Source: a virus
Length of the DNA: 64,000 nt
Virus record (IMG/VR): IMGVR_UViG_3300021964_000024
Coordinates: 41,815-105,814 of that record
Reading direction: 5' to 3' (one strand)
The notes beneath the pieces are model-generated. The model searched no databases and was not told where the DNA came from. It was given only the letters and a program-made list of their open reading frames with translations. Positions 1 through 64,000 of the stretch are shown here, in pieces (the first letter of the stretch is position 1; each line of letters starts with the position of its first letter). A program made the position numbers and the translations under genes.

Positions 1-142
1 TCATATCTTTAACCCAAGATGACGGGGTGCCGGGTATCCTGGCCTCGACCTCTTTGATGATGGCTTCCTCAGAGAAACCCTCATATACCATAGGATCGAC
101 AATATCCTGCAGATCCATAACATAACTTCCAATTTTACTCAT
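1..142 (-). CDS. hypothetical early protein, partial (runs off window start)
   Basis: ATG at 142, MSKIGSYVMDLQDIVDP..., RBS GAGGAG, sigma70 promoter upstream. Confidence 0.7.
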   Translation of the reverse strand, partial: MSKIGSYVMDLQDIVDPMVYEGFSEEAIIKEVEARIPGTPSSWVKDM

Positions 143-168
143 AATAGTCTCCTCACTGATCTTAGATC

Positions 169-197
169 AGTATATCAGAATTTTGGGAGGTTGTCAA
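169..197 (-). promoter_or_regulatory. sigma70-type early promoter
   Basis: TTGACA-17bp-TATACT. Confidence 0.8.
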
Positions 198-199
198 CA

Positions 200-237
200 T
201 ATAAATAAAAGAAAATTGAACAAAAAGGGTATAAATA
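200..237 (+). promoter_or_regulatory. T4-type late promoter(s)
   Basis: TATAAATA at 200-207 and 230-237. Confidence 0.7.
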
Positions 238-500
238 TGAGTGACGATCTATTTGATTTTGGTTTCTCCTTTGCGGATGAATCAGAAATAGAAGCAGTCC
301 AACAGGCAACCCAAAAGGTTGAAACTGTATCGACAGATGCCCAGTCTACTCAAGAGAGACTGGACAGACTATTCAATGCGATACAACCCCTGTTGAACAA
401 CTTAAAACAGAATCCTGAAAAGGAATATATTTTGTGGCCAAACCGACTAGATAAGATAGAACAGTTTGAAGACCACATACAAAACATCTATCAAGGGTAA
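237..500 (+). CDS. conserved T4-like hypothetical protein
   Basis: MSDDLFDFGFSF...LKQNPEKEYILWPNR; follows late promoter. Confidence 0.7.
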   Translation: MSDDLFDFGFSFADESEIEAVQQATQKVETVSTDAQSTQERLDRLFNAIQPLLNNLKQNPEKEYILWPNRLDKIEQFEDHIQNIYQG

Positions 501-503
501 TCC

Positions 504-4334: not shown

Positions 4335-4683
4335 CCTTAGTCCCCTTGTTTACTCGTGTTTCAATTAACCCCGGCTTTGCAGCAGCAAGTTTAGATAAGT
4401 TGTGTCTCGCAAAGATAGAGAGGTATCGATTCATCTCACCTTCGATCTCAGCGTTACGTGCAGACTGTGTTTGCAGTGCTTCGGTAGTCTTTTTCAGGTT
4501 ACCCTGAAGTGCTTCGATAGTCCTTACCTGCTCTTCCTGTCTGGTTTCAAATGCAGTAATAACCCCTGCTTGGGTTTGTAATTGTGCTTGCATATCTGCC
4601 ATCTTGGATTCGGTTGTCTGGAAATAAATGTATCCAACACCCGCACCCGCAACGATAAATGCAAACAGTAGTTTACTCAACAT
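4279..4683 (-). CDS. i-spanin (Rz-like)
   Basis: N-terminal TM plus coiled coil, KPGLIE motif. Confidence 0.7.
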   Translation of the reverse strand: MLSKLLFAFIVAGAGVGYIYFQTTESKMADMQAQLQTQAGVITAFETRQEEQVRTIEALQGNLKKTTEALQTQSARNAEIEGEMNRYLSIFARHNLSKLAAAKPGLIETRVNKGTKDVFRTIEQDTADIDAIDD

Positions 4684-5374
4684 CGTGCCAATTCTCCTTT
4701 ATATATTTTAAGTTACCCAGATCGTGTGGTTTTGGTCTTCCACCACAATCGACAATTTTACATTTAGGAGTAACGTAAGAGGGAAACTTCCATTGTCCTA
4801 GTACCTTACTACTTAGGTGAAACTTTAAGTTCAGTTTCACACTGGGAAACGTCTCATCTATGTAAAACACTTTCTTACCCAAACGTTCAATCAAGTGTCC
4901 GGTGTACACCTGATCCCCACCATCATATCCAAACTGAGGGTTGTTAACAAACATGTCCCACACGTCTTGCATCTTACCCTTCTCTAAAATCATCATTGAC
5001 GAAGAGTATTTATTATTTTTCCACATTATGGCATCGGAAACACACGCAACATCGTATCCACTTTTTAGTTGTTGGATCGAATAGTCTATCTCCTCATCAA
5101 AGTTACGTTGTAAAACGTTGTCGATGTCTAAGTATACCACATACTGTTGCGGAATGTCAAGGTCATATGCCTTCATCTTATTCCACCATCCATATCCTTT
5201 ACCAAAAGGTGGTTGGATAGGAGCACTGAGGTTACTCAGTTCGCCAGGCCGATCAGTAATACAATATGAAAAGACGTTGTATTCTGTCAGATCCACAAAC
5301 CTTTTTACGATCTTGTTCGCATACTCCATGGGGTAATTGTCTGTGCAGACTGTAAGTAATGCAATCTCTTTCAT
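4673..5374 (-). CDS. glycosyltransferase (GT-A, GT8-like)
   Basis: WWNK, YLDID, SSSMM, GGDQ, KPH. Confidence 0.8.
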   Translation of the reverse strand: MKEIALLTVCTDNYPMEYANKIVKRFVDLTEYNVFSYCITDRPGELSNLSAPIQPPFGKGYGWWNKMKAYDLDIPQQYVVYLDIDNVLQRNFDEEIDYSIQQLKSGYDVACVSDAIMWKNNKYSSSMMILEKGKMQDVWDMFVNNPQFGYDGGDQVYTGHLIERLGKKVFYIDETFPSVKLNLKFHLSSKVLGQWKFPSYVTPKCKIVDCGGRPKPHDLGNLKYIKENWHDVE

Positions 5375-6021
5375 ACCACCACCAACTCAATACCTTTCTC
5401 GTAGTTATGTTTTGCAACACATCCTCTCTCGTATTGAATCGTAGTGAACGAGTCATCTGCCTTTGCAACCCATGGATAACACTCTTGCAACCAAGGGAAG
5501 TTTAAAACGTTCAGGTAGATATCAGTAGGACGTGAATAATGTTCGATCTTGTTCAGTAACTCTTGTGCACCTTTTGGTTTTACGATGTACGCATGTGCAC
5601 CCTTGAAATAGTCTGCCTGCGTCAAAGGATTGACACCAAGAGTCATAGGGGTGTTGTACTTACCGTAACTGGGTTGTCCGATTGTAAGACACCTATCAAA
5701 TGACAGGGGTGGAAGACGATCAAAGAAAACAGTATCATGTTCAAGGATCATCACATTCTCGTTGTTCTGAACACTATAGTTCCAAAGGGATTTGTGCGAT
5801 AGGAAACACGCTAGCGCATTGTCTGCTCTAGAGTATTGACTCTCAAACATGTGACGTTGTAGTTTGGCGTTATCACACTGCAGTGCGAAATCCGAATCTC
5901 TGGGTGTAGTCGCTTTCCATTTATCTACGTGAATTCCGTACCTCTTCGCAGAAGTGATACACCTGTCTGCCGCACGTTGAGAAAGATCGTTGTCAAAAAT
6001 AGTAATTACAAAACTTTTCAT
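5371..6021 (-). CDS. glycosyltransferase family 25
   Basis: ACFLSH, ILEHD, GAHAYIV. Confidence 0.85.
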   Translation of the reverse strand: MKSFVITIFDNDLSQRAADRCITSAKRYGIHVDKWKATTPRDSDFALQCDNAKLQRHMFESQYSRADNALACFLSHKSLWNYSVQNNENVMILEHDTVFFDRLPPLSFDRCLTIGQPSYGKYNTPMTLGVNPLTQADYFKGAHAYIVKPKGAQELLNKIEHYSRPTDIYLNVLNFPWLQECYPWVAKADDSFTTIQYERGCVAKHNYEKGIELVVV

Positions 6022-6728
6022 TATGTCGTTGTTGTGGATTCGTCTCCACTAACCCTCGTGTAGTATGGGTGTATTACCCTAAGCCATGGGAACAGTTCCC
6101 GACACATGTATGCGTCATTAGGAAACATTCCATAATCTCTAACTCTATCTAGTAGTTCTTTAGCACCCGCAGGTTCGATGTAGTACGCAGAGTTACCCGC
6201 AAGTCCTTGTGGTACAGGATCCTCTCCTGCTTCAACTACTCTTGGTACTGGTTGAATACCACCCAACATTTGACTATGATATTGGTATGATCTTCGAGTC
6301 GCACCACGTGGATCATTCAGTCCTATGACTTTATGTCCCTTGAACGTCTCTAGGTCATCATCGGGTCTACGAATAAACCTTGCATCTGCTTCACATACGA
6401 TTCTAGGTTCGTCCTTAGTAACACAGTCATCCCACTGCAACATGTGACTGAGTGAACATGCAACCTTTTTCTTTTGGTCTGCAGCCCTGTATGCGAACTT
6501 GTATAGTCCTGTTTGTAAATCAAGACCGTTCTGATCTTCGGACACCGGCCAGTTCCATCTGAAATTTGACCGATTGAAGTATTTGAATTCCATCATCGAT
6601 GAGTCAATGGTATCTGGTACAACCGCATCAACTACAACAGGTGTCAGTCCACTCTTAACGGCGAACAGACTATTGATTAGAAATTTTTCAGTTTGGATCT
6701 TAGGGATCCTTATGATGTAGACATTCAT
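6021..6728 (-). CDS. glycosyltransferase family 25
   Basis: ACSLSH, CEADA, GNSAYYI. Confidence 0.8.
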   Translation of the reverse strand: MNVYIIRIPKIQTEKFLINSLFAVKSGLTPVVVDAVVPDTIDSSMMEFKYFNRSNFRWNWPVSEDQNGLDLQTGLYKFAYRAADQKKKVACSLSHMLQWDDCVTKDEPRIVCEADARFIRRPDDDLETFKGHKVIGLNDPRGATRRSYQYHSQMLGGIQPVPRVVEAGEDPVPQGLAGNSAYYIEPAGAKELLDRVRDYGMFPNDAYMCRELFPWLRVIHPYYTRVSGDESTTTT

Positions 6729-7516
6729 ATAGACTTGAATAGTTCCTCTACGTTCTCGCCTTGTTCTGGTAACAAGTCTTTCAAAAAGAAGTGCACGAAG
6801 TGACACTCTTCAATTTTAGTATTCGCACCGTACAGACCATTCCATTTCCAGTCCATATGTTGTACAGGTACGTCATACTTCTTGAGGAAGTAGTTCAATA
6901 AAGTCTGATCAGTAGACCACTTCCATGCACCAATACCATCCACAAAGTCCTTGAACTCCATGCGGTTAATAAATTCTTTTGCAGTATCGTCTTTCAGATA
7001 CGGTTTGAAGTTTTGACAGTTGATCACCATCATTCCCATGTTCGCAAACTCAAACCCAAGGTTAGTGGGACTGAAGTCTGTCTGGTTCGAGTGAAGTTGT
7101 CCATACTGCATACGAGAGTAGGTGACTATCTTCTGTTGGTACGCAGGAGTAATGGGCATCTCCCTTTCGTACACACACCCAAACGCAACGTCTGGATCGA
7201 TTGCATCAAAGATGTTAGGTGCATCCGGACGAATGTAGATATCCGCATCGATGATTGCGATCTGATCAAACTCATCTAGTAAATTGAACGCATTCTCTTT
7301 CTCGTAGATAGGGAGAAACCCACCATGCTTCATCCAACTATCCGTTGAACGATTGCTAGTGAAAGGATCGGGTTTGATCTTGAGAATCCCGTTGCGTTGT
7401 ACATGTTGCTTCAAGTTGTGCTTCTTAGAATAGTCGCACACACTATCGATGCACTTCTTGTACAATTTACTGTCGCCCTGTCTACCCAGAGCGACCTGAT
7501 ATATTAATCGTCGCAT
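6725..7516 (-). CDS. glycosyltransferase (GT-A)
   Basis: IIDADI, NMGMM, TDQTLLN, WKWN, FVHF. Confidence 0.8.
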   Translation of the reverse strand: MRRLIYQVALGRQGDSKLYKKCIDSVCDYSKKHNLKQHVQRNGILKIKPDPFTSNRSTDSWMKHGGFLPIYEKENAFNLLDEFDQIAIIDADIYIRPDAPNIFDAIDPDVAFGCVYEREMPITPAYQQKIVTYSRMQYGQLHSNQTDFSPTNLGFEFANMGMMVINCQNFKPYLKDDTAKEFINRMEFKDFVDGIGAWKWSTDQTLLNYFLKKYDVPVQHMDWKWNGLYGANTKIEECHFVHFFLKDLLPEQGENVEELFKSI

Positions 7517-7746
7517 TAGTGGATCTTTTCTATCTGATAGTCAAATGGGGCAACAGTCTTGATTTCAAAACTATTACCGTCCGTCTTCACTCCAACTAAG
7601 TGAGTGGGTTTCTTCGTGGTGATCTTCTTCAGATGATAGACACGCTTGGTTGTCTTAGGATCAAACTGCGTTCCACCCTTGTACCAAACGGTTACCACAA
7701 ACTCTTCAGTGAACCAGTCCAACCATAACTTGCGTAACCAACCCAT
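7516..7746 (-). CDS. hypothetical protein
   Basis: 76-aa ORF with RBS, in operon. Confidence 0.6.
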   Translation of the reverse strand: MGWLRKLWLDWFTEEFVVTVWYKGGTQFDPKTTKRVYHLKKITTKKPTHLVGVKTDGNSFEIKTVAPFDYQIEKIH

Positions 7747-7837
7747 GATTCAGTCCTCTGAAGTTAATGCAACATACATCATTGTAATTGCTGCACATAC
7801 AGATACCACTAAAATACCAGCTAAAACAGTTTCCATG

Positions 7838-8083
7838 TTATCTCCTACTATATTTACTTCTACCCTCGTTCAGTAGTTTGAACTTGGATAGTTTCTTCTT
7901 TCTCTTTAATTTAGCGTTTGCAGTATTCTTGATTTCGTTCGGTTTGACATGGAACTGTCTCTTCCTACACTCTGTCACGACTCCCGCTCTATTTACTGCA
8001 CGAGACCATCTTCTTAACATCTTGTCAAACGATTCCTCGTACTTCCCTTTATATCCAACTCTTTTTGGTTCTACTCTTGGCAT
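7838..8083 (-). CDS. rpsU: ribosomal protein bS21
   Basis: ESFDKMLRRWSRAV..GVVTECRKRQFHVKP. Confidence 0.85.
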   Translation of the reverse strand: MPRVEPKRVGYKGKYEESFDKMLRRWSRAVNRAGVVTECRKRQFHVKPNEIKNTANAKLKRKKKLSKFKLLNEGRSKYSRR

Positions 8084-8094
8084 GTTCCTCCTAG

Positions 8095-9096
8095 TTAAAG
8101 TGCATTAATATCTCTATAATCATTGAGATCGAACGCAGTGCCGATCATCTTATGGAGATCTCTATTATGATTAGTATACACTAAAACTTCGGGATCGTCA
8201 AGCAAAAAGTCACAACTTTTACAATAATCTGGATAATTCTTAGTTCTGTGTCCCTCTCTTAGTGCAGAGTATTCAGGGCCACGAATGATTTCTTCTATGG
8301 TATTGACTGACGTATGACCAAGTACAGCTTCTTCATCACGCCCCAAGACTTGACAACAAGGATGAACAGCACCACGGTGACCGTCCATTCCGCCAGCACG
8401 TATAACAACGTCTGGACTAAAAGGTCTTCCACAAGTTTTTACCTCTCCCTTTCTGGCGTTCTTGCCGATATCCCATGCACCAGACCAGTTATGCATTTTC
8501 CATATCTCAGTCTTAACACCTAGTTCCTCGACCAACGCTTTGTATTGTTCTAGTTCTTGTTCTATGTTATCGTTATCAGTTATGAGATGATACGTCTCTA
8601 CAACACAATCAGATCCAGACTCCTTGACATACGCAACCATCTCTTCGATGTTCTTCTTGATCAAATGATAGTTACTACCTCTTGTGTTGTGCATCCATTT
8701 GTCATAGAGTTCTGGGGTGGGGCCAATGAAAGAGAATCTAAAAAAGTCTAGTCCTGCATCAACACAATCTCTCATGAACTGACCCTGCATCTTGAATCCG
8801 TTCGAGAAGATGACCGCCTGTGCATTGTACTTCTTTACGATCTTGATGTATTCGGGTAGGTTACGATTGATCGTTGCCTCACCAGAACCATCTAGGTTAA
8901 CTACTCGCAGTCCGTGTTGTGCACAGTCTGCAACGTTATCCTCGAAGTCCAATAGGTTCATCTTACCTATAAAGTTCTTGTGTCTTCCTCCAGTTCGTTT
9001 GTCCTGTGGACACATTGTACAATCGAAATTACATCCCCCTTGTATTTCGATAACTGCTCTATCTATCTTGATAGAATTGTCTACACCTTTGCTCAT
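8095..9096 (-). CDS. radical SAM protein with SPASM/twitch domain
   Basis: CNFDCTMC, GSGEA, CGRPF, HPCC, CKSC. Confidence 0.9.
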   Translation of the reverse strand: MSKGVDNSIKIDRAVIEIQGGCNFDCTMCPQDKRTGGRHKNFIGKMNLLDFEDNVADCAQHGLRVVNLDGSGEATINRNLPEYIKIVKKYNAQAVIFSNGFKMQGQFMRDCVDAGLDFFRFSFIGPTPELYDKWMHNTRGSNYHLIKKNIEEMVAYVKESGSDCVVETYHLITDNDNIEQELEQYKALVEELGVKTEIWKMHNWSGAWDIGKNARKGEVKTCGRPFSPDVVIRAGGMDGHRGAVHPCCQVLGRDEEAVLGHTSVNTIEEIIRGPEYSALREGHRTKNYPDYCKSCDFLLDDPEVLVYTNHNRDLHKMIGTAFDLNDYRDINAL

Positions 9097-9922
9097 ATTC
9101 TATTGCTCGTTTTTTACTTGAACCTAACATCTCAGATAGGTTGTTCATCCAGTAATATATATTACGTGGGTTATCCTCTTCTGCGTCAGTCTTAACGCAG
9201 TGTGGTGTATGGTAATTAGTAATACCCTCAGTACTCAAAATCACCATCGGTGTTTGAAAGTTACGGGCAATGTAATGCCACATACCATCATAACACACTA
9301 CTTGTCTACACGTTGATATGTGATAGAACGCTTCTGATATAGGTGTTCTATATGTCAGTTCAACGGTATATAATCCTGCCTGACGCATTAAGCTTATTAT
9401 ATCATCCCATTGCTCATGTGTCAAGACCCTTTTCCAAGTTCTTGGTTGTTCTGCATTGAAGGTAGGTCTCCAGACTACTACCTTTCTTTTGTCTATTACT
9501 CTAGGGACATCTCGAAAGATCCAGTCGGGGAATGGTGCGTTACCACCCTCTCTATCGTCGTATACCCCTGACTGAAAAAAGAATCTATTTTTATGACCAC
9601 GATTGATTGCTGCTATACGTAAGGTTCCATCATCTTCTCTTACGAAGTCATCTGCAAATTTCCAATCACTGTATCGTGTAGTTTGTCCATATACATGCCT
9701 CACCTGAACATCATCTTTTCTATAATAGAAATTGTGCATGTACTCCAATCGTTCTATGATTGTTTCCGGATCTTCGAAGTGGTGTAGGTGATGCTCGTCG
9801 TGTTCCCAGTGAAACTCCAGTACTACTTTCTTCTTGTATTCATAACAATAGTTATGGACACAGTTAAGTGCCCACATGAAGTCACCTACACCAGGCGTAC
9901 CTCTCCAAGTTACATATTCCAT
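9059..9922 (-). CDS. glycosyltransferase-like (GT-B/GT9-like)
   Basis: GVGD N-terminus, YDGMWHYIA. Confidence 0.55.
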   Translation of the reverse strand: MEYVTWRGTPGVGDFMWALNCVHNYCYEYKKKVVLEFHWEHDEHHLHHFEDPETIIERLEYMHNFYYRKDDVQVRHVYGQTTRYSDWKFADDFVREDDGTLRIAAINRGHKNRFFFQSGVYDDREGGNAPFPDWIFRDVPRVIDKRKVVVWRPTFNAEQPRTWKRVLTHEQWDDIISLMRQAGLYTVELTYRTPISEAFYHISTCRQVVCYDGMWHYIARNFQTPMVILSTEGITNYHTPHCVKTDAEEDNPRNIYYWMNNLSEMLGSSKKRAIEYEQRCRQFYQDR

Positions 9923-9930
9923 TCATCACC

Positions 9931-10401
9931 TTATACACTGGTTATCAACACTACGGTTCCTCCGATAATAAACGCAGAAATTACCACCGCCGCCAGTATT
10001 GCAATACCATCTTCAAATGCCGCTTTACGATCCGCAGCTTCTTTTGCCGCTTGGATCCTCCGTTGACGTATCACACGTCTCTCTTTCATCATCTCATCGT
10101 AGAAGTCTGATTGTCCGGTATAGATTAAGAAATCCTTGAGTTCCTGTTCCATTTGTGCAATTTTACGTCGAGCAGCAGTCACTTGTAGTGCTTCTGCTTC
10201 GACACTGTTACCGGCAAACAACTTCTTTACTCTTGAGTGTGTTGCACCTTTTATCGCTTCCTCAGATATCTGCTCTTTTGCGTCAAAGAATCGGGCGAAA
10301 TAGTTATATAGGTCTTCTGCTTCTCGACCTGACTCTACCGCCCTTTTAATCATGTTAAATGCAGATCCGGCAAGCGACAATGCCGCTCCGATCTCTACCA
10401 T
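9931..10401 (-). CDS. membrane-anchored coiled-coil protein
   Basis: C-terminal TM helix. Confidence 0.65.
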   Translation of the reverse strand: MVEIGAALSLAGSAFNMIKRAVESGREAEDLYNYFARFFDAKEQISEEAIKGATHSRVKKLFAGNSVEAEALQVTAARRKIAQMEQELKDFLIYTGQSDFYDEMMKERRVIRQRRIQAAKEAADRKAAFEDGIAILAAVVISAFIIGGTVVLITSV

Positions 10402-10411
10402 GATTATTTAC

Positions 10412-10741
10412 CTACTTTTTACCTGACCATGCTTGAGCACCAAAGAACGCTGCTACGATACCTGCAACTGCAATGAAGTAAACTCCTGCCATGTCACCCA
10501 GTATGTCTGCCGCTTTCTCTAGACCTGTTAAATTTGCACTCACCACGAGTACGGGATACAATAACATACCCCACAGCGAGAACCATGCCATGGAACGCTG
10601 TGCGTCACGCATTGCATCTGCGTCTTCGAGTTCTTTACGTTTAAACTCCAAGTACATCGCCTCTTCTTCTTTAGAGACTTTACCGTCTCCGTTTGTGTCA
10701 GCAGGGTGGTGTCCCGCTGCCTTGATCTCTTCTTCTGACAT
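10412..10741 (-). CDS. 2-TM membrane protein with EF-hand-like motif (holin-like)
   Basis: DTNGDGKVSKEE, two hydrophobic helices, basic C-terminus. Confidence 0.55.
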   Translation of the reverse strand: MSEEEIKAAGHHPADTNGDGKVSKEEEAMYLEFKRKELEDADAMRDAQRSMAWFSLWGMLLYPVLVVSANLTGLEKAADILGDMAGVYFIAVAGIVAAFFGAQAWSGKK

Positions 10742-10770
10742 ATTGAATATCCTTTGTAATTTTGATTATA

Positions 10771-11292
10771 CTATTCATTATGTAAAAGACTGCCTGACAT
10801 ATTCAAATTGAATCCTATAACAATTTTGTGTCCTTGGCAGTTTGGCCCTCTGTGTGGTAACATTGATGGAAAAACCACCAAGTCACCTATGTGCAAAACC
10901 ATGTCTACAAACCCCATCAACTGTGTTGAGTTCTCTGGTAACCCATGAACTTGTAACACTGCAGACAAATTCGTTCCCTCATGTGTATGCCACTCAAAGT
11001 TGTTCCCCTCGTTGTACTCGGCAAACCACATACTTTCAACCTTAATCCTAGAACATTGCCATTGGTTAGCATAGTTCGTAAGGGCAGGTTGTATTAATTT
11101 AATAGCCTCATCCCAATACGGTGGTCTATAATTAATACCTTCCTTCCATGGAAGTTTGTAATCAGAGAATTGCATGTTCGCAAATGAACAATCATGCTCT
11201 GACTTCACCTTCGTCATTTCCTTCGTCAGATGTTCCTTGAATGCAAAGAACTCTCTTGGTGGAAATGTATAACGTTTAATAAACTGATTCAA
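10771..11292 (-). CDS. 2OG-Fe(II) oxygenase
   Basis: WHTH...VVFPSMLPH...IGFN. Confidence 0.8.
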   Translation of the reverse strand: MNQFIKRYTFPPREFFAFKEHLTKEMTKVKSEHDCSFANMQFSDYKLPWKEGINYRPPYWDEAIKLIQPALTNYANQWQCSRIKVESMWFAEYNEGNNFEWHTHEGTNLSAVLQVHGLPENSTQLMGFVDMVLHIGDLVVFPSMLPHRGPNCQGHKIVIGFNLNMSGSLLHNE

Positions 11293-12776
11293 AATACTTT
11301 AACACCGTATTTATTTTCAAACAATTCAGCATCATGTTCGTCGTTGACCATAGGTCTTCCACGAATGTTCAAACTGGTATTTAGTAACATCGGAACCCCT
11401 GTACGTTCGTAGTATTCCTCAATTACCTTCCTAAAGACCGATTCACAGTCCTGACGGACTATTTGTACTCGTGCAGTTCCATCTACGTGAGTAACCGAAT
11501 CATAGTCATGAAGTGCCTTTGACGTGTACTGCATGTACTCGTTCATTGGCCCCTCGAAGTATTTATACGCATATTCTTCTAGAACTGCAGGTGCAAAGGG
11601 ACGATATTTTTGTCTGCGTTTGATCTCATTCACAGTGTCCTGTACATCATAACGTACATCTGCGATCAGAGATCTATTACCCAGTGCACGTGGCCCAAAC
11701 TCTGCCTTACCGTTCGCTATACCACATACCCTATGTTCTAAGAGGTGATCAACTACTTCTCTTGGATTGATCTCTCGTTCAATGTTGTAACCCATGTAAG
11801 GTGTCCAAATCAACTGATCTTGATCGGTCAACCTTGACCAAGACAGTGCGGCAGCACCCAGAGAAGATCCTGCGTCTGTAGGTGAGATTGCAATGTGAAC
11901 GTCTTCGAACAATTCGAAGAGTCTTGAATTGATAACAACATTTTGTGCACATCCACCAGAGTAGACCAGTTTCTTACCATAAAGTGATGCGGTTCTCATG
12001 ATCTGCATGATGGCATATTCTGCGAACTTTTGTACCCCTGCCGCAAAGTCTTCTTTACTGTATTTCGTAACGAAGACTTTTAACATGGAACGAAGGTTCT
12101 CATACTCCGGATTACCTTTATCGGGAAAGTCGATTTTCTGCTTCTTTTCAATACGAGGATTAATGTCACCTGTATGTTCCCACCAGTTGACTAGTTTTGA
12201 CCAGATCTCTTCGGGTGCTTGACCATAGGAAGCAAGTCCCATAGTCACGTATTCGTCTTCTAGTGGACGTAAACCTAACAGACGTGTTGCGGTAGTGTAC
12301 ACCAACCCTACTGACTTAGGGTAGTGATATTCTTTGATGAGGTTGAAATTGTTGTCGTAGATAGTTGCGGTTTGGAATTCACCTACACCATCGATAGACA
12401 CCATGACAGTCGTATCACGGTCTTTCCATGGACGGGTAAAGAATGCGGATGCACAATGACTCTTATGATGTTCATAATTGGCATCATAATAGATACTATC
12501 ATAGACAGGGATCTGTTCGTGTGCGGTAATAGAATTCCCTGTGTGTAGGGGATTCTTAGTTTGATCCTTTCTATAGGTCTTCTTCCACTCTACGTTTTCG
12601 TAGAATGAGAAGTGATCATCATTAGTAGTATAATCCCAGAGATTTTCTGGAATCACCGGATCATTTTTCTTCTTAGTAAATCTCTCTGCATGAGAGGCAA
12701 ACTCTATCGTACCGTCCGAATTGACAATAGATAAAGCTGCATCGTGATAGTATTCACTAAACCCAACGTACCTCAT
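11289..12776 (-). CDS. carbamoyltransferase (NodU/CmcH family)
   Basis: HDAA, HHKSH, IDGVGE, EFGPRALGNRS, THVDGTARVQ, LLNTSLN. Confidence 0.92.
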   Translation of the reverse strand: MRYVGFSEYYHDAALSIVNSDGTIEFASHAERFTKKKNDPVIPENLWDYTTNDDHFSFYENVEWKKTYRKDQTKNPLHTGNSITAHEQIPVYDSIYYDANYEHHKSHCASAFFTRPWKDRDTTVMVSIDGVGEFQTATIYDNNFNLIKEYHYPKSVGLVYTTATRLLGLRPLEDEYVTMGLASYGQAPEEIWSKLVNWWEHTGDINPRIEKKQKIDFPDKGNPEYENLRSMLKVFVTKYSKEDFAAGVQKFAEYAIMQIMRTASLYGKKLVYSGGCAQNVVINSRLFELFEDVHIAISPTDAGSSLGAAALSWSRLTDQDQLIWTPYMGYNIEREINPREVVDHLLEHRVCGIANGKAEFGPRALGNRSLIADVRYDVQDTVNEIKRRQKYRPFAPAVLEEYAYKYFEGPMNEYMQYTSKALHDYDSVTHVDGTARVQIVRQDCESVFRKVIEEYYERTGVPMLLNTSLNIRGRPMVNDEHDAELFENKYGVKVF

Positions 12777-12805
12777 AAAAAACTCCACTTAGTTAGCGAA
12801 GTTAT

Positions 12806-13381
12806 TTATCCAGTAATTATCTCGTAGAGTTCTTTCCAGTTCTTGACTCTAGGGATACCGTGATCTCCTGTATTGAAGTCGTGTGCAATCAAGTGTGAAT
12901 TGAGACCCAAGTTCTTACCAACTGTTGCGTTCTCAACTTTATCTTCGATCCAGTAACAACCCGTACCTTCGTACTCTTTGAGGATCTCATCCTTGTCTGC
13001 ACCAGTATCTAGGTACACATATCTCTCGAACGCAGTCTTACCGAATAACTCAGTAAGGTTCTTGCATCTTAGATACTGTGCGTACTGGTCATTACTAAGA
13101 CTGGTGATTGCGTGAAACACGTAACCATGTTCCTCATGAAGTTTTTTAATATACTTCATTGCGTCTCTGAGAGGTGGTATCTTTCTGATCCACGCACTCT
13201 CGTTGAACAATCTTACTAGTCTTTTTGCATAGGGTCTCTCTAACCCGTACTGGTCTGCGACATCATAGACAGTATCATCTACAATCTCGAAACCTTGTCT
13301 GTGCATCCACCCTCTCCAAGAGTGTTGCCAGTCTAGGACTACACCATCGCAGTCCGTAAGTATTACTTTTTCTTTCATCAT
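12806..13381 (-). CDS. HAD-family 5'-nucleotidase (T4 gp30.2-like)
   Basis: DCDGV, WIEDK. Confidence 0.85.
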   Translation of the reverse strand: MMKEKVILTDCDGVVLDWQHSWRGWMHRQGFEIVDDTVYDVADQYGLERPYAKRLVRLFNESAWIRKIPPLRDAMKYIKKLHEEHGYVFHAITSLSNDQYAQYLRCKNLTELFGKTAFERYVYLDTGADKDEILKEYEGTGCYWIEDKVENATVGKNLGLNSHLIAHDFNTGDHGIPRVKNWKELYEIITG

Positions 13382-13590
13382 ATAGGTAATTCCATTTGTT
13401 TAGTATAACCTGCAATGGTGTCAGAGATGTTCTTCAGAACAATCTCTTTCTGTGCATCCCCTGCAAGTGCCCAATCTAGTTGGGTCTTCAAAACTCCATA
13501 ACAGTACGCATAGTTCTTCGTACCGTTACCTTCCAACGAATGAGTCTTTGACTCTTCTTCAATTATTTCAAAATACTGATCTAAGCACAT
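13378..13590 (-). CDS. hypothetical protein
   Basis: 70-aa ORF in early operon. Confidence 0.6.
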   Translation of the reverse strand: MCLDQYFEIIEEESKTHSLEGNGTKNYAYCYGVLKTQLDWALAGDAQKEIVLKNISDTIAGYTKQMELPI

Positions 13591-13967
13591 AACGTCAATC
13601 CTGCATCAAGTTTCTCTGCAATCTCTATGATTGCTTTGGTGTGTTCCTCTCTGTAAGCAACCCATTCATGGTACTGACCAATCGGGTATTTTGCAGGAGG
13701 GGTTATTCCAGTAACATCGTTACTAGTCTCAAACTCTTCATAGTTTGAATACGGGTAGATGGCAAAGGTATCTGCCTTATCCTTGTGAACAAAGTCTTTA
13801 GGTCTGTCGTAACCAACCTTACTGTTTCCTCTGTACCTGACAGTGAACAATCTAGTCCTCATTAGTTCTTGGACTTTAGGGTGGTTTCTGTATTCCATTG
13901 GAATACCCTTGTAGAGACCTGACTCATAGTCGGGACATCTATAATCTTCTAATATCAAATTTTTCAT
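13581..13967 (-). CDS. hypothetical early protein
   Basis: ATG after GAGG RBS of promoter cassette. Confidence 0.65.
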   Translation of the reverse strand: MKNLILEDYRCPDYESGLYKGIPMEYRNHPKVQELMRTRLFTVRYRGNSKVGYDRPKDFVHKDKADTFAIYPYSNYEEFETSNDVTGITPPAKYPIGQYHEWVAYREEHTKAIIEIAEKLDAGLTLCA

Positions 13968-13969
13968 AA

Positions 13970-14060
13970 TTAACCTCACTTTTCTCAATTACATGTTAAG
14001 TATACATGTTTTTGAAACAAGTGTCAAGGGTTTTTTGAAAAAAAGTATATATTTTTTATA
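13970..14060 (-). promoter_or_regulatory. early promoter/RBS cassette (repeat family)
   Basis: TTGACA-17-TATACT, CTTGTTT spacer motif, AATTGAGAAAAGTGAGG leader. Confidence 0.85.
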
Positions 14061-14070
14061 TATAATTTGA

Positions 14071-14895
14071 CTAAGCAAGTATCTTAAATTTACCTTCTTT
14101 GGCATGGCGTAACATATCGATTTTCCAACCACCACCAGTGTAGTGACACATCTTTGCCTTCTCAAAGAACTCATCTTCAGTGGCATAATGGGGGGAGTCG
14201 TTCCATGTCTGATCCAGTGCTTCGGTGTTTAGATCGAAGTCGTGTTTGATCAACTGTCCAGATATGTACGGTTGATCATTCATCACCGACATATGGAACT
14301 CTGGTTTTGCGTAGAACCATTCTGTCCAGTCCATGAATACCTCACGTGCACGTAGACGTGCCTCACGTGTCCATACGACAATACCTGTATTCAGGACAGT
14401 TAACTTAGATGGTCTACTAGGTGGTAGTGATGGGACAATAGGAATGTCGTGCATAGAGAACTTTGCAACAAAGTCTTGATATGTCTTTTCCTTGTAGTCC
14501 CAAGAGTTATACCCACCACCATTCGATGTGACGATATCACTCTCAAGTACACCAAAGACATCTCCGTCTTCACACAGATCAAAGATGTTCTCTTCGGTGT
14601 TTACTACAATGTCGGTATCGGCAAATAACACCTTGTCATACTGGTCAAACATAGGATCATAGATAACCCTCAAACACTCAAACAAAAGAGCGTTTGCATG
14701 GTCATGTCCTGCAGTGTACACTTGCTCATCTGAGTAGAAGTACTCTGCATCAATAATATCAGCATACTCTAGAAAGGAACGTCGAGATAAATCTGCTACC
14801 TCACGATAGACTTGACTTCTCTGTCTTCCCTCAATCTCTCCCCTTTCGTCTACATTAGGGTTGAGTACCATGTATTGAAATATCGCATTTCTCAT
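14071..14895 (-). CDS. glycosyltransferase (GT-A)
   Basis: FADTDI, NTGIV, NDQPY, HYTG. Confidence 0.8.
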   Translation of the reverse strand: MRNAIFQYMVLNPNVDERGEIEGRQRSQVYREVADLSRRSFLEYADIIDAEYFYSDEQVYTAGHDHANALLFECLRVIYDPMFDQYDKVLFADTDIVVNTEENIFDLCEDGDVFGVLESDIVTSNGGGYNSWDYKEKTYQDFVAKFSMHDIPIVPSLPPSRPSKLTVLNTGIVVWTREARLRAREVFMDWTEWFYAKPEFHMSVMNDQPYISGQLIKHDFDLNTEALDQTWNDSPHYATEDEFFEKAKMCHYTGGGWKIDMLRHAKEGKFKILA

Positions 14896-58423: not shown

Positions 58424-59354
58424 TATGATACTCCACATACCAATCGTAAAAATTCTTAATACCCACACTCACGTCAGTGTGAGGGTGATAACCCAGTGCT
58501 TCTAGTTTAGAAGTGTTTGAATATGTTTCTAGTGTGTCTGCAGGATGTTTAGGTTGCATGTCATATATTGCAGACTTACCAACATTCTTCTCAATCTCTT
58601 TAATGAAGTCCATCAACTGAACTGGACTACCTCTACCGATATTGTAGATCTCTCCAGAAGGTGCGTCCTCAAACAATACACACAGAATACCATCTATGAT
58701 GTCATCAACGTAGGTAAAGTCACGTTTCATGTCTCCGTAGTTGAACACAGTAATCGGTTCATCTGCAATAATGTTCTTGGTGAAACTAAACAGTGCCATG
58801 TCAGGTCTTCCCCAAGGGCCATATACAGTAAAGAAACGTAGACCCACATTATTCAAACCGGATGCTTGGAACTGACATTCATTAGTCCACTTAGACCAAC
58901 CGTATGGGTTCAACTGCTTACCTGTTTCTTTACCCTCAGTCCACGGTAACTCAGATCCCGCAAAGACACAAGAGGTTGATGCATACACGATGCGTACATT
59001 AGGTAAATGCTTCTTACATAGATCAATCAGGTTTTGAGTTCCGTCGATATTGTTCTCATGGTATTGTTTCTCTTTACCAAACGAGTCACGTACACCCGCA
59101 TGTGCGGCAAGGTGAATGATATCTGTGGGTTGATGTTTAACCAGAAACTCTTCTAGGTGATACGAGTTACGAATATCAACATATCTGACATCGATGTCAA
59201 AGTGATTTACCCTATCCTTTTTTAGTGTGGGTGAATACAGGTGATCATTAAAGTTGTCTAACCCAATCACCTTCTCTCCTGCATTGTACAGTGTGTTCAT
59301 CAACTGAGATCCGATAAATCCCGCTGCTCCTGTAATTAAAAACTTTCTATCCAT
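58413..59354 (-). CDS. NAD-dependent epimerase (UDP-glucuronate 4-epimerase-like)
   Basis: GAAGFIG, Y..SK, RFFTVYGPWGRPDMA. Confidence 0.92.
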   Translation of the reverse strand: MDRKFLITGAAGFIGSQLMNTLYNAGEKVIGLDNFNDHLYSPTLKKDRVNHFDIDVRYVDIRNSYHLEEFLVKHQPTDIIHLAAHAGVRDSFGKEKQYHENNIDGTQNLIDLCKKHLPNVRIVYASTSCVFAGSELPWTEGKETGKQLNPYGWSKWTNECQFQASGLNNVGLRFFTVYGPWGRPDMALFSFTKNIIADEPITVFNYGDMKRDFTYVDDIIDGILCVLFEDAPSGEIYNIGRGSPVQLMDFIKEIEKNVGKSAIYDMQPKHPADTLETYSNTSKLEALGYHPHTDVSVGIKNFYDWYVEYHNGR

Positions 59355-60288
59355 TTCTGTATATGTACTCCAGTGCTCTGTCTGCCTCTACGATCAGTGG
59401 ACGATTCTCATACCAGTTACCTGTCTCACGATCAAACTCCTTACACATATCTGCAATTTGATTTGCGGTGATAGGGTAACCCTTCTCGAATGCACGTCCG
59501 GCAATCGCAATCATTATTTGATACATCTTGTGATACCAACCTGTACCAGTAATCGACTGATACTCTGCACCCAGTTTACGTGGCCAGAACGGACAGTCTC
59601 TATAGGATATCCAATTGATGTCAGTGTTATTTAGTTGATTCTTACGATACTCAATTATCTCTTTCTGCATCTCTGGTGGTAGTCGATCTAGGAATGAGTT
59701 GCCTGTCTTCTCTACATACGGATACTTAGCAATTAACTCAGAGACGTTTAGTGCGTCACCTGAGTTAGTAAAAAAGAAACTGAATGCGTCAGGATATATT
59801 GCAGGTACATAATACATACGTGCAAGATCCTTAGTTTGCGGATCTCCTATCTCACCCAGTTCTGTGTTCAGTGCATACCAGAATGGTTTGATGCGTTCGT
59901 TCTCAATGTGTTCGTCCAGTCTAAAGACGATGCGGAACTTTGGTATGTCCTCACGGGAACTCGCAGTGTTGTATACCACATAGTCCAAGTGACCAAACTT
60001 CTCCCGCAACGATTCTTCTAGAGATAGAACATCATGAGGAAAAACATGATCGTCCACATCAACAGCACACCAACCAGCCCAACATACAGTAGATTTATTA
60101 CTACGTGTGCTATCGGTTTGAAAAATAGCAGGAGTAATAAGAGGACTAGAATTATTTCCACCCTTCTCTCCTTTTTGTTGTGACAACCCACGCAACAACG
60201 CAACGAGTTCATCCCAGTCTGAGAGTGACACTCGCCGGTGCGTTTTGTTGTCAAATTGATTTTTGAATATCGTTAATTCGTATCGCAT
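59347..60288 (-). CDS. primase-polymerase (AEP-like) protein
   Basis: VDVDD, TASS, KFRIV, D...KD..RMYYVP. Confidence 0.7.
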   Translation of the reverse strand: MRYELTIFKNQFDNKTHRRVSLSDWDELVALLRGLSQQKGEKGGNNSSPLITPAIFQTDSTRSNKSTVCWAGWCAVDVDDHVFPHDVLSLEESLREKFGHLDYVVYNTASSREDIPKFRIVFRLDEHIENERIKPFWYALNTELGEIGDPQTKDLARMYYVPAIYPDAFSFFFTNSGDALNVSELIAKYPYVEKTGNSFLDRLPPEMQKEIIEYRKNQLNNTDINWISYRDCPFWPRKLGAEYQSITGTGWYHKMYQIMIAIAGRAFEKGYPITANQIADMCKEFDRETGNWYENRPLIVEADRALEYIYRNG

Positions 60289-60295
60289 GTATTCA

Positions 60296-61093
60296 TTATA
60301 ACAGATCACATAGTACTTTGTCAAGCTGATCAGGATTTGATATCAGGGCACGTGCAAACAACTGGACTAGAGTGTTATTGATTCTGTACTTGATCCACCC
60401 ATCTGTCGCACTCTTAAAGTACTGGTTAGCGTTCTTGGTGTGAGTCCAGAGTCCACGTTGCAATGCGTTCGCAGTTCTACCTCCGTATCTGACCTCCATG
60501 ATATAGTCACCGTACCTATCATAGAACCTATAGACCGGATGCTTTCTTCCAGACCCAGACTCAAGTAGTCGTATGTATCTGGTATTCAACTCTGCCTTTC
60601 TTGCATTGAAAACAAGAATGTTGCACTCTAGTTTATTCTCCTTGTAGATCAAGGGTAGGACATTCATCTTACCGAAGTGACTGAACGCTTCGTGATCAAA
60701 GACATCCTTAATTTCTTCTGGATCAGTAATCTCTGATCCGTAGGATTCTAGTAATGGAAACATGAGACATTCTTTGTCAGTAGACAATTGCAGTGGCCCG
60801 TCTCCGTATGCCTTCAGACTGATAGGGAACTCATCGTAGTTATCAGTATTCGTTACTATCACGTCCTCTTCGTGTCCCTTAGAACGGAACAACTCTTTAC
60901 CCACATGGATACAGTTGTATCCTTTCATGTGTTCGTTGATGAACTCAGTGATCGCAACTTCTGCAAGGTCACCATGGGTCTTGTTACCAATGACCCGCAT
61001 GGTAAAGATATTACTCAGGGTATCGGTTAGTTCTTTTTTCTTATATTTGGATAAGGATAACAGGTCTTCATTAAATTTAGTAAATGCACTCAT
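60296..61093 (-). CDS. type II restriction endonuclease-like protein
   Basis: GDLAE...EEDVIV...ISLK (PD-(D/E)xK variant). Confidence 0.55.
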   Translation of the reverse strand: MSAFTKFNEDLLSLSKYKKKELTDTLSNIFTMRVIGNKTHGDLAEVAITEFINEHMKGYNCIHVGKELFRSKGHEEDVIVTNTDNYDEFPISLKAYGDGPLQLSTDKECLMFPLLESYGSEITDPEEIKDVFDHEAFSHFGKMNVLPLIYKENKLECNILVFNARKAELNTRYIRLLESGSGRKHPVYRFYDRYGDYIMEVRYGGRTANALQRGLWTHTKNANQYFKSATDGWIKYRINNTLVQLFARALISNPDQLDKVLCDLL

Positions 61094-61634
61094 ATAGTCT
61101 CATCTCCCCAACTCCACCGCCTTTGAAGTCTGTGCGGTATGGGTAGTTTTTTATAAATCTCAAACGTTCTTCATCTTCAAAAATTCTGACCACCATATCA
61201 ACTTGTGGTAACTCCGTATTGTCATACAAGACATACTTCGCACCTAGTCGAAACGCAACGATAGTATCATCGATCACATTTTGTTTATCATGATTACCAT
61301 CGACAAACACTAGGTCAAACTCTTCACCTTTCACCCTATCTAAAATTTTAGGTGACGGTACAAGATGCACTGTCACGTTAGGGTACTTCTCCATCACTAC
61401 CTCACCATACTCACGTCCTCGTGGATGGTCAGGACAACAGGATATAATTTTGCAGTCCGGATGGAAATGCTCTGCCATGTAACTGGTAGAGTGTCCTGCA
61501 TAAAATCCAATCTCTAATACACTCATGGGGTTTACCACTTCACGTATATGCTTCAGTGCATCGAAGATGTGTTTGTTTGCGGGTAGATAACCCCACCCAT
61601 CTTCTTTCCACATCAAGTGTTCAAAATTATCCAA
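61077..61634 (-). CDS. class I SAM methyltransferase (Methyltransf_24-like)
   Basis: LEIGFYAGHS, FVDGNH; TTG start. Confidence 0.8.
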   Translation of the reverse strand: MDNFEHLMWKEDGWGYLPANKHIFDALKHIREVVNPMSVLEIGFYAGHSTSYMAEHFHPDCKIISCCPDHPRGREYGEVVMEKYPNVTVHLVPSPKILDRVKGEEFDLVFVDGNHDKQNVIDDTIVAFRLGAKYVLYDNTELPQVDMVVRIFEDEERLRFIKNYPYRTDFKGGGVGEMRLYECIY

Positions 61635-62022
61635 AGAAATCCTCCAAGGACGGTTGTTTTTGACCAGTTACGAATTCAAGAAATCCACTTTCCGAAACGT
61701 CTTTAATAAAAAGTGACTCCCAATTAGTAGAACCATCTTTGTTCAATCGATACCAGTGTTTAATATCTCGATCTTCTCGATATTTTTTCATAGAGTGATT
61801 GTCGGTGTTCCACGCATTTTTCACAGACCAGTAGACACCATCTACAATGTAGTCAACACCTTCCGGTCTGTTTTTATCCCTACCAACAAAGATAACATTA
61901 TCTGGCAATTTAGAATTTATATAATCTTCCAACAAACGTCCAACGTTCTGTTGCAGTAAACGAATTCTTTTGTACACTTCGATATCCGATTTAGTAAAAA
62001 ATTTTTCTATAATACTATCCAA
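61627..62022 (-). CDS. SinI-like restriction endonuclease with C-terminal clamp-binding motif
   Basis: [25 protein letters not shown]; ends SLEDFFG; TTG start after GGAGG inferred. Confidence 0.6.
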
Positions 62023-62034
62023 AGAAATCCTCCA
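61628..62034. repeat. 19-bp direct repeat flanking the nuclease gene
   Basis: TATCCAAAGAAATCCTCCA at 61628-61646 and 62016-62034. Confidence 0.9.
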
Positions 62035-64000
62035 GTGTCGCCTTGGGTTCTGCAACCCAACCCACCGCATCCAGAATGGGTGTAATAGGATCAATGAATG
62101 TCTTATCGAACATCATATCATAATTTATGTGATCATGCAACCCCAGTTCTTTCGGAAGGTTCAGGGGAAACGATACCACGTTCTCACCCAGACGGTTGGG
62201 CATTTTCAGATAGACGAACTTGATCTTCTCTCCGTTCTTGACCATCTCGTACCTACGTTCTAGGGCATTCTCCTTGATCGCACTGTTGTACATTAACGCA
62301 CCACGCACGTGAATGGGGGTGCCTTTCTTGTACACAGCGGTACGGTCTTCCCATTTGTCAACGTCCGATACTCCACGAGGAAACGAGATGTCTTCGGGTG
62401 GAAGGTTCTTGAATTGGGACTTAAAGTCTGAAATGAACCGTTGTGTTTCTAATTCTGTACCTTGGACTAGTATATGAAACAGTTCTTTCATTTTATCCCG
62501 CACCACCGAAGGTGTGGACGATTTGATTGCTTCAATACCCATCATCTTGAGTTTGGGTTCTGCGTACTGGACACCCTCATTGTTGTGGACGTTGAGGATG
62601 TATCGTTTCTTTGCCATCCAGATACCACGATCTGCAATAACCTCACGACCCATCTCCATGCGATTTTCATACGCACCCGTCACAGTCGCCATGCTCTGAT
62701 ATGATTTCTCTAGAACTTTCTCGAAGTGTTCACTGCAGATCTTGTCTAGAAACCCAACAGGATTCTTGGGAGAAAAATGATCAACGAGATCCCCCATACG
62801 AATATAAAGAGAATCGGTGTCAATTGCAACAACGTAGTCCTCATCTGTCTTGAGAAGATTTTGCATCTCATTATTCACTGCCCTCTCTGCCCATTTGATT
62901 GCGAGTTGTCCCGCAAGAGTAATCGACTCCGCAACACGTTGATCGAAGTAACGAAACCATCGGTTACCCAACGCACCATAGAGTGAGTTCATCAAGATCT
63001 TGATCGCCATCTGATTGTTGTTGAGTGACGTGATCTTGTATTCTAATTCCTTGGAAGGATTCTTCTGGTACTCTGTCTGTAGCTTCAGCATCTGATCCTT
63101 GATCACTCGACGTTCAGAGTAGTACTCCTTAATCACGGAAGGTACGACACCCTCACGTTCATGAGTAAACTTAGAACCAGTCGGTGCAACAGAGTAACCT
63201 ACATCTCCGACATTGACAGACCCGTCAAGGAACTTCTCTACTGACACATCATGTATGAATCCATCCATGACAGTCTCAGGCGACATATTGTACTGGACAA
63301 TGATATTCGGGTACAGGGAGTTCAGGTCGAATGAGGTAACCCAATCGTGTGATCCAACCTGCGGATCCTTGACATACCCGCCGGGGTATGCAGTCTTGGG
63401 TTTCTCGACCTTGGGTGGTACAACGATCTTCCTCTTGTTTAGAATACGATAGATGATCGAATCCCAGATTGCAGTCGTACCCAGAGTATCACCATAGTTC
63501 ACACCACCACGATATGCCATGGTCAGAACCAGAGAGATCAGGTCAAGCTTCTCATCGATCTTGTGTACCAACTCCACGTCCTTGACGTTGTAGTCAATGA
63601 ACTTCTGGTAGTCTTCCTTGTGCAAGGTGTATAGGTTACCGTGTTCCTCATACGAGAGTTTACGTTCACCCAGTACCACGTTCGCAATGTTGTCCAGTCG
63701 ATAGGACTCTTGTTGACCCAGAGTATTCAGGGTGAACTTCTTGAAGACCTCAAGGTAGTCGAGGTGCTCGACACCCTCAATCACAAAGTACTGATTGGGT
63801 TTACCGTTGATAGTGATGTTACGATCCTGCACCAGACCCCAAGGACTGAGGCGGCTGGACATCTTGGTATCACCAGTGATCTTGTACATACGGTTGATCA
63901 GATATGGAATATCGAAGAACCGTGTGTTCCACCCAGTAATAATATCAGGAGTATGCATCTCCCAGAACCGGACGAACTTCTGCAACAGATCGAACTCGTT
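62015..64000 (-). CDS. 43: family B DNA polymerase (T4 gp43), 5'-partial
   Basis: [24 protein letters not shown]; C-terminal TLEDFFG; frame open to the window end. Confidence 0.97.

Follow-up and report, generated by a model that had tools for sequence, protein, structure and literature searches.

What could have emptied the DNA of a phage of short restriction-type sites so thoroughly that its codon choice is bent around them, and what part might nuclease genes carried by the phage itself play in this? The window considered here is a stretch of 64,000 nucleotides, bases 41815-105814 of IMG/VR record IMGVR_UViG_3300021964_000024 (linear, 105,814 bp; the whole record is called G000 below), which contains no GGWCC, CGCG or AATATT and in which all 26 of the 26 CCNGG sites have a G on the 5′ side or a C on the 3′ side. 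It also includes two putative nuclease genes, here called mini-AvaII and orf265, that lie between the genes for a family-B DNA polymerase (PolB) and a primase. The explanation that we favor, and consider rather probable, has three layers. GGWCC would have been lost by plain avoidance of AvaII/SinI-type enzymes, in a phage that encodes a truncated AvaII-like nuclease of its own right after its polymerase; AATATT would have been lost only in the lineage that bears orf265, by the same logic; and CCNGG would have been removed throughout the clade, independently of GGWCC, wherever a synonymous change permits, with a 5′ G or 3′ C kept where Pro-Gly makes the site unavoidable.

The phage and its relatives

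The window codes for a T4-type replication set (family-B polymerase, primase, gp41-like helicase, UvsX and ribonucleotide reductase), and its source is an uncultured phage of the T4-like kind with affinity to the Kyanoviridae. Its nearest relative in GenBank, and the sole close one, is Phage C48C1 (Kyanoviridae; UvsX 80% and PolB 77% identical), which no paper found in a literature search mentions; marine cyanomyoviruses have about 49% PolB identity to it. The gene psbA was not found in G000, C48C1 or the relatives G001 and G004. G000 is 62% complete according to CheckV, and G001 (151 kb) is 91% complete. Of 526 PolB matches in IMG/VR, 80 loci that are 71-100% identical were kept, and the clade comparison of CCNGG is based on 52 deduplicated loci (710 kb). 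As control phages, 50-kb stretches of S-PM2, P-SSM2, BUCT-ZZ01, Stenotrophomonas phage DLP_6 and S-B43 were sampled; for S-PM2 (L101), P-SSM2 (L102) and S-B43 (L121) these are the first 50 kb.

Sites missing from the genome

The features that bear on the missing sites are the following:
1 to 64000, no strand: genome-wide purge of short restriction-type sites, seen as counts against a codon-shuffle null
38 to 42, no strand: one of only four CCNGG outside the Pro-Gly frame, with its 3′ C flank kept (CCTGGC)

Expected counts were obtained from 300 synonymous codon shuffles within genes over the whole of G000. Against this null, GGWCC is found 0 times where 80.2±7.1 are expected, and HCCNGGD, i.e., CCNGG with neither flank, is found 0 times where 91.1±7.8 are expected and is absent from every frame. 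CCNGG as such occurs 46 times (null 123.8); all 46 have a G before or a C after, and 22 have both, so that GCCNGGC is far more frequent than expected (22 versus 2.3±1.5). A preliminary description, made from the letters of the window, had claimed that GGNCC and CCNGG occur only where they overlap GCC or GGC, and the counts bear it out for each motif over the whole record.

In-frame Pro-Gly, the sole reading in which the site is unavoidable, accounts for 42 of the 46 CCNGG. At 34 of these 42 the glycine codon is GGC, which makes up only 6% of all Gly codons, and at the remaining eight the preceding codon ends in G; every Pro-Gly is thus flanked, as had been claimed. Likewise, all 34 Gly-Pro pairs are written GGS-CCN, i.e., with GGG or GGC. 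CCNGG outside the Pro-Gly frame, at 38 to 42 and also at 19362 and 38974, include the two such sites (near 37 and at 38974) for which the same flank rule had been reported correctly, and the flank pattern is symmetric on both strands. The dipeptides themselves are scarce: there are 42 Pro-Gly and 34 Gly-Pro where amino acid composition predicts 82 of each, and the corresponding Pro-Gly ratio in the control phages is 0.9-1.3. The pairs are about halved, so amino acid choice has been bent as well. The site loss is thus supported as the outcome of strong selection of the restriction-avoidance kind to which codon choice is bent, and the earlier attribution of the codon bias to selection against cleavage agrees with the codon-shuffle nulls and with the use of GGC at Pro-Gly.

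Many other short sites are missing or rare in G000. CGCG is absent (null 129), GCGC is reduced to 18 (null 96) and RGCY to 175 (null 554). With nulls of 6-39, AATATT, GGTACC, GACGTC, CGTACG, CGATCG, GTCGAC, ACCGGT, GCATGC, CYCGRG, GRCGYC, CCTAGG, CAGCTG, TGCGCA and GACNNNGTC are all zero. CTTAAG is found twice and CCTNAGG once. The statement that this is "not general palindrome loss" holds for CCGG, which is not depleted (119 versus 138), and for GATC, which is enriched (659 versus 487); it fails for CGCG and the many hexamers at zero. TGCA (767 versus 609) and CTGCAG (68 versus 44) are enriched too, and no Dam-type methylase was found in the 106 kb of G000. Much of the avoided set corresponds to classical cyanobacterial specificities (AvaI, AvaII, AcyI, AflII, MstI/FspI, SplI, PvuI-type and DsaV); it fits the Kyanoviridae affinity of the phage but names no host. 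Losses at CGCG, GCGC, CYCGRG, GRCGYC, CGTACG, CGATCG and the like are taken to be ordinary host restriction avoidance.

Some non-palindromic words are depleted in G000 as well: AGCTC/GAGCT (1 versus 22.6), CATCAG (16 versus 58) and CTCGTC (8 versus 31.5), and GCACGC and CGACCG do not occur. Enzymes of asymmetric type (IIS, III or I) may recognise these words.

Two rules rather than one

Relatives of the phage separate the two motifs that the preliminary description had placed under one GCC/GGC rule. In G004 the unflanked CCNGG is absent (0/118, observed/expected) whereas GGWCC is normal (87/109). In G001 GGWCC is absent from avoidable frames (0 versus 78) and GGSCC in avoidable frames is neutral (34 versus 37), so the pressure there is specific to W and is plain AvaII-type avoidance. 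Moreover, since every GGSCC contains GCC, to confine GGNCC to places that overlap GCC is simply to say that GGWCC is absent. Avoidance of GGWCC and avoidance of CCNGG are therefore two independent rules.

The CCNGG rule extends over the clade. Only 41 (13%) of the 312 CCNGG in the 52 deduplicated loci are unflanked, whereas for CC and GG at every other spacing from 0 to 6 nucleotides about 67-75% are unflanked; the flank bias is thus specific to a spacer of one. Most of the 41 unflanked sites are in C48C1-like loci, a subgroup with a Dam methylase gene between PolB and primase. The rule is identical across loci whose other avoided sites vary, and it is not obeyed in the sampled stretches of any of the five control phages. 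A flank does not make the site harmless, since flanked CCNGG are themselves depleted 1.4-5.7-fold where they are avoidable (5 versus 18.9 in G000, 13 versus 36.3 in G001, 16 versus 22.9 in G004 and 7 versus 39.9 in C48C1). It lessens the cost of CCNGG without abolishing it; a single flank suffices, and having two is favored.

In the rule-breaking subgroup (C48C1, which is L001, at 33480-34364; L036; L067) a Dam-type N6-adenine methylase takes the place of the nuclease between PolB and primase, and GATC is about 1.7-fold above expectation. The C48C1 methylase is related neither to orf265 nor to the Methyltransf_24 protein described below. Clade contigs have been binned in metagenome-assembled genomes labelled Porticoccaceae, Sphingobacteriales and Melainabacteria, which is not evidence of host; two of them (L118 and L120, 93 kb and 142 kb) are entire phage contigs in Porticoccaceae and Sphingobacteriales bins, where mis-binning is likely, and unflanked CCNGG is 0 in both. 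In S-PM2, P-SSM2 and S-B43 CCSGG is 0 and GGCC, AGCC and AGCT are strongly depleted, and in P-SSM2 CGCG and GCGC are absent (0/55 each) despite abundant GGWCC and CCWGG. Such depletion in marine cyanomyoviruses indicates that part of the GC-context bias is family-wide.

A truncated AvaII-like nuclease next to the polymerase

The polymerase gene and the gene that follows it are:
62015 to 64000, minus strand: gp43-like family-B DNA polymerase gene, 3′ part only, with its product ending in the peptide TLEDFFG; the contig ends inside the gene
61627 to 62022, minus strand: putative mini-AvaII/SinI-type nuclease gene (131 amino acids), assigned from Pfam, a family profile, an AlphaFold2 (AF2) model and Foldseek

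The mini-AvaII gene starts at a TTG codon at 62022, which lies 6 nt after a GGAGG and overlaps the PolB stop codon, and its product ends in SLEDFFG. The protein matches Pfam RE_SinI (PF09570) with 28.8 bits (cut-off 22; E 8.9e-7), and its family profile matches AvaII (6G3B) with an E value of 1.5e-8. Its AF2 model has a predicted local distance difference test score (pLDDT) of 86, and Foldseek places AvaII chains at all of ranks 1-8 (TMq 0.51-0.65, prob 1.00), two of them with E below 0.001; no other match to the model is significant. In the family D57, K68, T73 and N75 are invariant and E32 and N72 are at least 90% conserved. Of these, E32/D57/K68 align with the AvaII catalytic residues E123/D147/K163, and N72-T73-D74-N75-H76 aligns with the guanine-reading loop N167-T168-E169-N170-S171 of AvaII (PMC7337904). 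The family comprises 43 metagenomic clusters of about 131-150 amino acids and has no member in GenBank phages. When 1.84 billion representatives were searched with the profile, 220 clusters were obtained, namely the mini forms and, for the most part, proteins of 200-270 amino acids matched in their C-terminal halves, which argues that the phage protein is a trimmed AvaII/SinI; no longer forms of the mini family were found by word search. Like AvaII/SinI (PDB 6S48, 6G3B), mini-AvaII would have a PD-(D/E)XK core, a Glu/Asp/Lys active site and an NT(D/E)N(S/H) loop. It differs from AvaII in its size (131 versus about 238 amino acids), in the lack of the N-terminal three-helix bundle and of a cognate methylase, in being phage-encoded and always situated between PolB and primase in the relatives, and in its polymerase-like C-terminal tail; its specificity is a prediction.

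GGWCC is absent from all ten deduplicated loci that carry the mini-AvaII gene (0 versus 128 expected, summed), whereas among loci without it 14 of 35 have no GGWCC and 21 of 35 have many. The gene is thus present only in genomes that were already, or have since become, free of GGWCC, and the probable target of mini-AvaII is GGWCC. There is no match to PF00145, PF01555 or PF02086 in G000 that could represent a cognate methylase, and the neighbours of the gene in relatives are PolB and primase. Nor did a profile search of six-frame open reading frames (ORFs) of G000, G001, G004 and C48C1 reveal any paralogue; a single 17-bit candidate proved to be a 67-amino-acid out-of-frame stretch. As a cause of the CCNGG rule mini-AvaII was ruled out, since records that lack the gene obey the rule too.

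In one strain, represented by L022/L023 (3124-3204; IMGVR_UViG_3300023116_000483) and sharing 99% identity with G000 across PolB, orf265, primase and UvsX, mini-AvaII has been lost save for its first 27 codons, and GGWCC is still 0.

A polymerase-like tail

The junctions on the two sides of the nuclease gene carry a repeat:
62016 to 62034, minus strand: 19-nt repeat TGGAGGATTTCTTTGGATA, first copy, covering the PolB end and the ribosome-binding site and start codon of the nuclease gene
61628 to 61646, minus strand: 19-nt repeat, second copy, covering the nuclease end and the ribosome-binding site and start codon of the next gene

In 15 loci both the nuclease and the PolB of the same phage end in [ST]L[ED]xFF. 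At the DNA level the two tails show synonymous differences (L004, for instance, no longer has the Shine-Dalgarno-like GGAGG), and the peptides co-vary (SLDSFFG with SLDGFF in L016-18), both of which argue that the peptide itself is under selection. In T4 a C-terminal peptide of this kind binds the gp45 sliding clamp. A predicted complex of clamp and nuclease scored 0.56 (best of three controls, 0.00), with at least 93% of contacts agreeing between runs and a partner pLDDT of 46-50. In calibration, 51 of 78 solved complexes came up to the score mark, against 2 of 108 mismatched pairs, and scores of 0.60 or less took in just 5 of the 78 solved complexes, plus all 4 of the mismatches that passed. 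The modelled complex thus gives weak support to clamp binding by the nuclease tail.

orf265 and the PolB-primase slot

The other genes of the slot, and the gene that borders it downstream, are:
61077 to 61634, minus strand: small class-I S-adenosylmethionine (SAM) methyltransferase (Methyltransf_24/O-methyltransferase-like, 185 amino acids)
60296 to 61093, minus strand: orf265, putative methylase-less protein with a PD-(D/E)XK restriction-endonuclease fold (265 amino acids), of the ThaI/NaeI blunt-cutter type, probable target AATATT
59347 to 60324, minus strand: DNA primase (gp61-like), bordering the variable PolB-primase slot on its downstream side

The methyltransferase gene between the two nuclease genes does not encode a recognisable DNA methylase, and in relatives it is found elsewhere too. 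No Pfam family covers orf265, which has 3908 homologues of about 277-281 amino acids at 55-65% identity; neither the names of cluster members, nor plasmid matches, nor PDB sequence matches gave it a name. Its AF2 model (pLDDT 86) aligns best with ThaI by VIA-align (Z 10.6, root-mean-square deviation 4.4, 188 residues aligned), followed by NaeI (Z 9.1), SwaI (Z 7.0) and then MspI and HinP1I; Foldseek gave weak rows only, all of them nucleases. The conserved E45/E50, D77 and S92-x-K94 resemble the Glu...Asp...Ser-x-Lys arrangement of ThaI (PDB 3NDH, which cuts CG/CG; PMC3025569). The fold is that of the blunt cutters ThaI, NaeI and SwaI, and orf265 differs from these enzymes in sequence (about 11% identity), in a footprint of AATATT rather than CGCG, and in that the methylase partner of a homologue is N6-adenine specific. 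That homologue (52% identical, in one locus, L124) overlaps the start of a D12 N6-adenine DNA methylase gene and appears translationally coupled to it, which suggests that the orf265 target contains an A. In L124 (1479-5846; IMGVR_UViG_2663763167_000013) the pair adjoins, on the other strand, a 637-amino-acid N6_Mtase/Eco57I-type methylase gene, as a small restriction-modification (R-M) island.

AATATT is absent from G000 (codon null 39±5) and from two near-identical contigs; in the clade comparison it stands at 0/65 in G000 and at 484/532 in all other loci, and the nearest relative without orf265 (L024, PolB 92%) has 6/6.8. From the fold, the methylase partner and the footprint, orf265 would be an SspI-like AATATT enzyme. 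The orphan restriction-endonuclease-like genes noticed earlier at 60.3-62.0 kb are thus probably an AvaII/SinI-type and a ThaI/NaeI-like protein, in keeping with that reading, and no DNA methylase partner accompanies them.

Candidate agents and rival explanations

In the favored explanation the DNA would be purged of many short nuclease targets through synonymous codons and, at Gly-Pro and Pro-Gly, through amino acids; mini-AvaII would cut GGWCC in host or competing-phage DNA while held on the sliding clamp, and the DNA of the phage itself would be immune because it has no GGWCC site. Three agents could stand behind the third layer. A mark placed at the G-C step by a phage writer of unrecognised type, which blocks CCNGG enzymes, is a tentative choice. 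A conserved phage-borne nuclease with the site HCCNGGD seems unlikely to us, although it would account for a CCNGG rule that is constant amid varying other sites and for escape at the codon level; such a core nuclease would have a 7-bp site selected because codons can avoid it. Host CCNGG enzymes that spare G-flanked sites we judge unlikely to the same degree. To our knowledge no enzyme has the site HCCNGGD, and in the CCGG family PfoI and AgeI, for example, are sensitive to the flanking pairs.

A writer of the right kind exists in the T4-like cyanophage S-B43, where CmoX is a GC-directed C5 writer that makes 5gcxmC and blocks HhaI (PMC12783734). In this aquatic phage the CmoA-CmoX-CmoY pathway modifies the C of G-C steps to 5-carboxymethyl- and glycyl-carboxymethyl-cytosine (PMC12783734), and it is precisely in this context that CCNGG is tolerated in G000. 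G000 presents only a sequence footprint, every tolerated CCNGG overlapping GCC, and a CmoX-type C5-methylase homologue was not found in it. S-B43 has the same RGCY/GCGC depletion and GC-context word bias as G000, so such depletion is no argument against a GC writer.

A number of results weigh against the favored explanation or its candidate agents. The full AvaII/SinI architecture is lacking in mini-AvaII, which covers only profile positions 102-213 of 218 and is without the N-terminal ~100 residues of AvaII, including part of the surroundings of the dimer interface. The association between the gene and GGWCC absence (Fisher 7e-4) counts loci as independent and ignores phylogeny, and GGWCC is 0 without the gene not only in 14 loci but also in the 91%-complete G001, so host AvaII-type pressure alone can give the absence. 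The association between orf265 and AATATT is that of a single lineage. As for writers, PF00145 and PF01555 have no match in G000 or G001-G005, and CmoA has none among three methyltransferase-like ORFs of the window, the only ones scanned with that model; S-B43, a positive control for a GC writer, does not follow the CCNGG flank rule in its first 50 kb. The nuclease families EcoRII-C and LlaMI, specific for CCNGG/CCWGG, have no match in G000, G001, G004 or C48C1; a comparison of gene content within 10 kb on either side of PolB in 27 obeying and 5 breaking loci found no gene specific to the obeyers, only the Dam methylase going with the rule-breakers. The depletion of flanked CCNGG in avoidable frames belongs here as well. 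Other searches were negative too: no C5, N4/N6 or Dam methylase is present in G000, no GNAT or Mom match was obtained among 43 window ORFs scanned, and family searches, profile searches and the comparison around PolB brought up no candidate for an HCCNGGD nuclease. Two individual genes were considered: a conserved PD-(D/E)XK gene at 38827-39540 is an MGME1/Cas4-like exonuclease rather than restriction-like, and an ORF at 30012-30770, which is in obeyers and absent from C48C1, gave no informative match.

The preliminary description had favored a single mechanism in which cytosine modification at GC or GCC shields overlapping CCNGG and GGNCC while Sau96I-like and ScrFI-like enzymes remove the rest. 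We regard this as doubtful. That a single flank suffices and two are favored is what hemi- and full modification would give, CmoX shows that such a writer can exist (PMC12783734), and the S-B43 word bias removes one objection; however, the GC- or GCC-specific C5 or N4 methyltransferase that it predicts was found neither in G000 nor in the 91%-complete relative that obeys both rules, the CmoA scan was equally negative, flanked CCNGG stay depleted where they are avoidable, and the first 50 kb of S-B43 lack the rule. Relatives show the two rules apart, and with GGSCC neutral in G001 there is no call for a GGNCC enzyme. It is somewhat less probable still that avoidance is purely host-driven, with the phage nuclease genes being captured host genes that are irrelevant to the pattern and perhaps inactive, and a host CCNGG enzyme sparing G-flanked sites. 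The resemblance of the avoided set to the cyanobacterial specificities named above speaks for this, as do the many relatives that are free of GGWCC without the gene and the flank reading of enzymes like PfoI and AgeI. It does not explain why AATATT is missing only in the orf265 lineage or why mini-AvaII keeps its catalytic and recognition residues and a tail under purifying selection, a CCNGG rule constant across loci with differing avoided sites would be unusual for strain-variable R-M systems, and no enzyme for HCCNGGD is known to us. Finally, an origin of the pattern in codon usage, dinucleotide bias or mutation (e.g., deamination of methylated CCNGG) rather than in selection against cleavage is very improbable and already contradicted: the GpC odds ratio is 0.67, and RGCY depletion and TGCA excess are common to S-PM2, P-SSM2 and S-B43, which makes part of the GC bias a lineage trait, but codon-preserving shuffles retain 80 GGWCC and 91 unflanked CCNGG where none is observed, the Pro-Gly flank is supplied by the rare codon GGC, and the rule is strand-symmetric and specific to spacer 1.

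Glycan and tailoring genes in the window

At 4673-18310 the window has a predicted glycan/tailoring island with two GT25 and two GT8 glycosyltransferases, a radical SAM-SPASM protein, a B12-binding radical SAM protein, two 2-oxoglutarate (2OG)-oxygenase-like proteins, a NodU-type carbamoyltransferase, an NT5C-like deoxynucleotidase and one methyltransferase.

Relation to known systems and significance

Restriction-site avoidance itself is textbook knowledge, being classical in T7, other coliphages and the cyanophages of Anabaena and Nostoc. As in those phages, short palindromes in this clade are far below codon-preserving expectation and the set that is lost varies between relatives; G000 differs in its halved Pro-Gly and Gly-Pro, its strict flank rule and the match of two lost sites to the probable targets of its own nucleases. 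The chlorella viruses with their R-M systems, and T4 with EndoII and EndoIV, carry nucleases directed against host DNA and protect their own DNA by methylation or hydroxymethylcytosine. The phage of the window would likewise carry nucleases able to cut cellular DNA while sparing its own, but its protection would lie in the absence of sites, with no modifying partner.

What appears new is a strict and symmetric flank rule, held clade-wide, at Pro-Gly, where codons cannot remove the site, together with phage-borne restriction nucleases without methylases whose probable targets are missing from the carrier genome, one of them with the clamp-binding-type tail of the polymerase. A wider proposition, which we put forward as speculative, is that this abundant clade of aquatic T4-like phages distinguishes self from foreign DNA by the absence of sites and not by modification, that methylase-less nucleases, one of them tethered to the clamp, destroy the DNA of hosts or rivals, that codons and proteins have been rewritten until the genome retained none of their targets, and that behind the HCCNGGD rule stands a third agent, either a core nuclease or a new writer at the G-C step. 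In this variant of restriction avoidance as a whole, the clamp-tailed mini-AvaII and the lineage-specific pair of AATATT and orf265 are the features that are easiest to test and of greatest interest. Provided that the nucleases are active, the 131-amino-acid mini-AvaII would be among the smallest sequence-specific restriction enzymes, the flank rule would reveal, from sequence alone, either a DNA modification or a nuclease specificity that is new, and phages with unmodified DNA could safely shred the DNA of their hosts and competitors.

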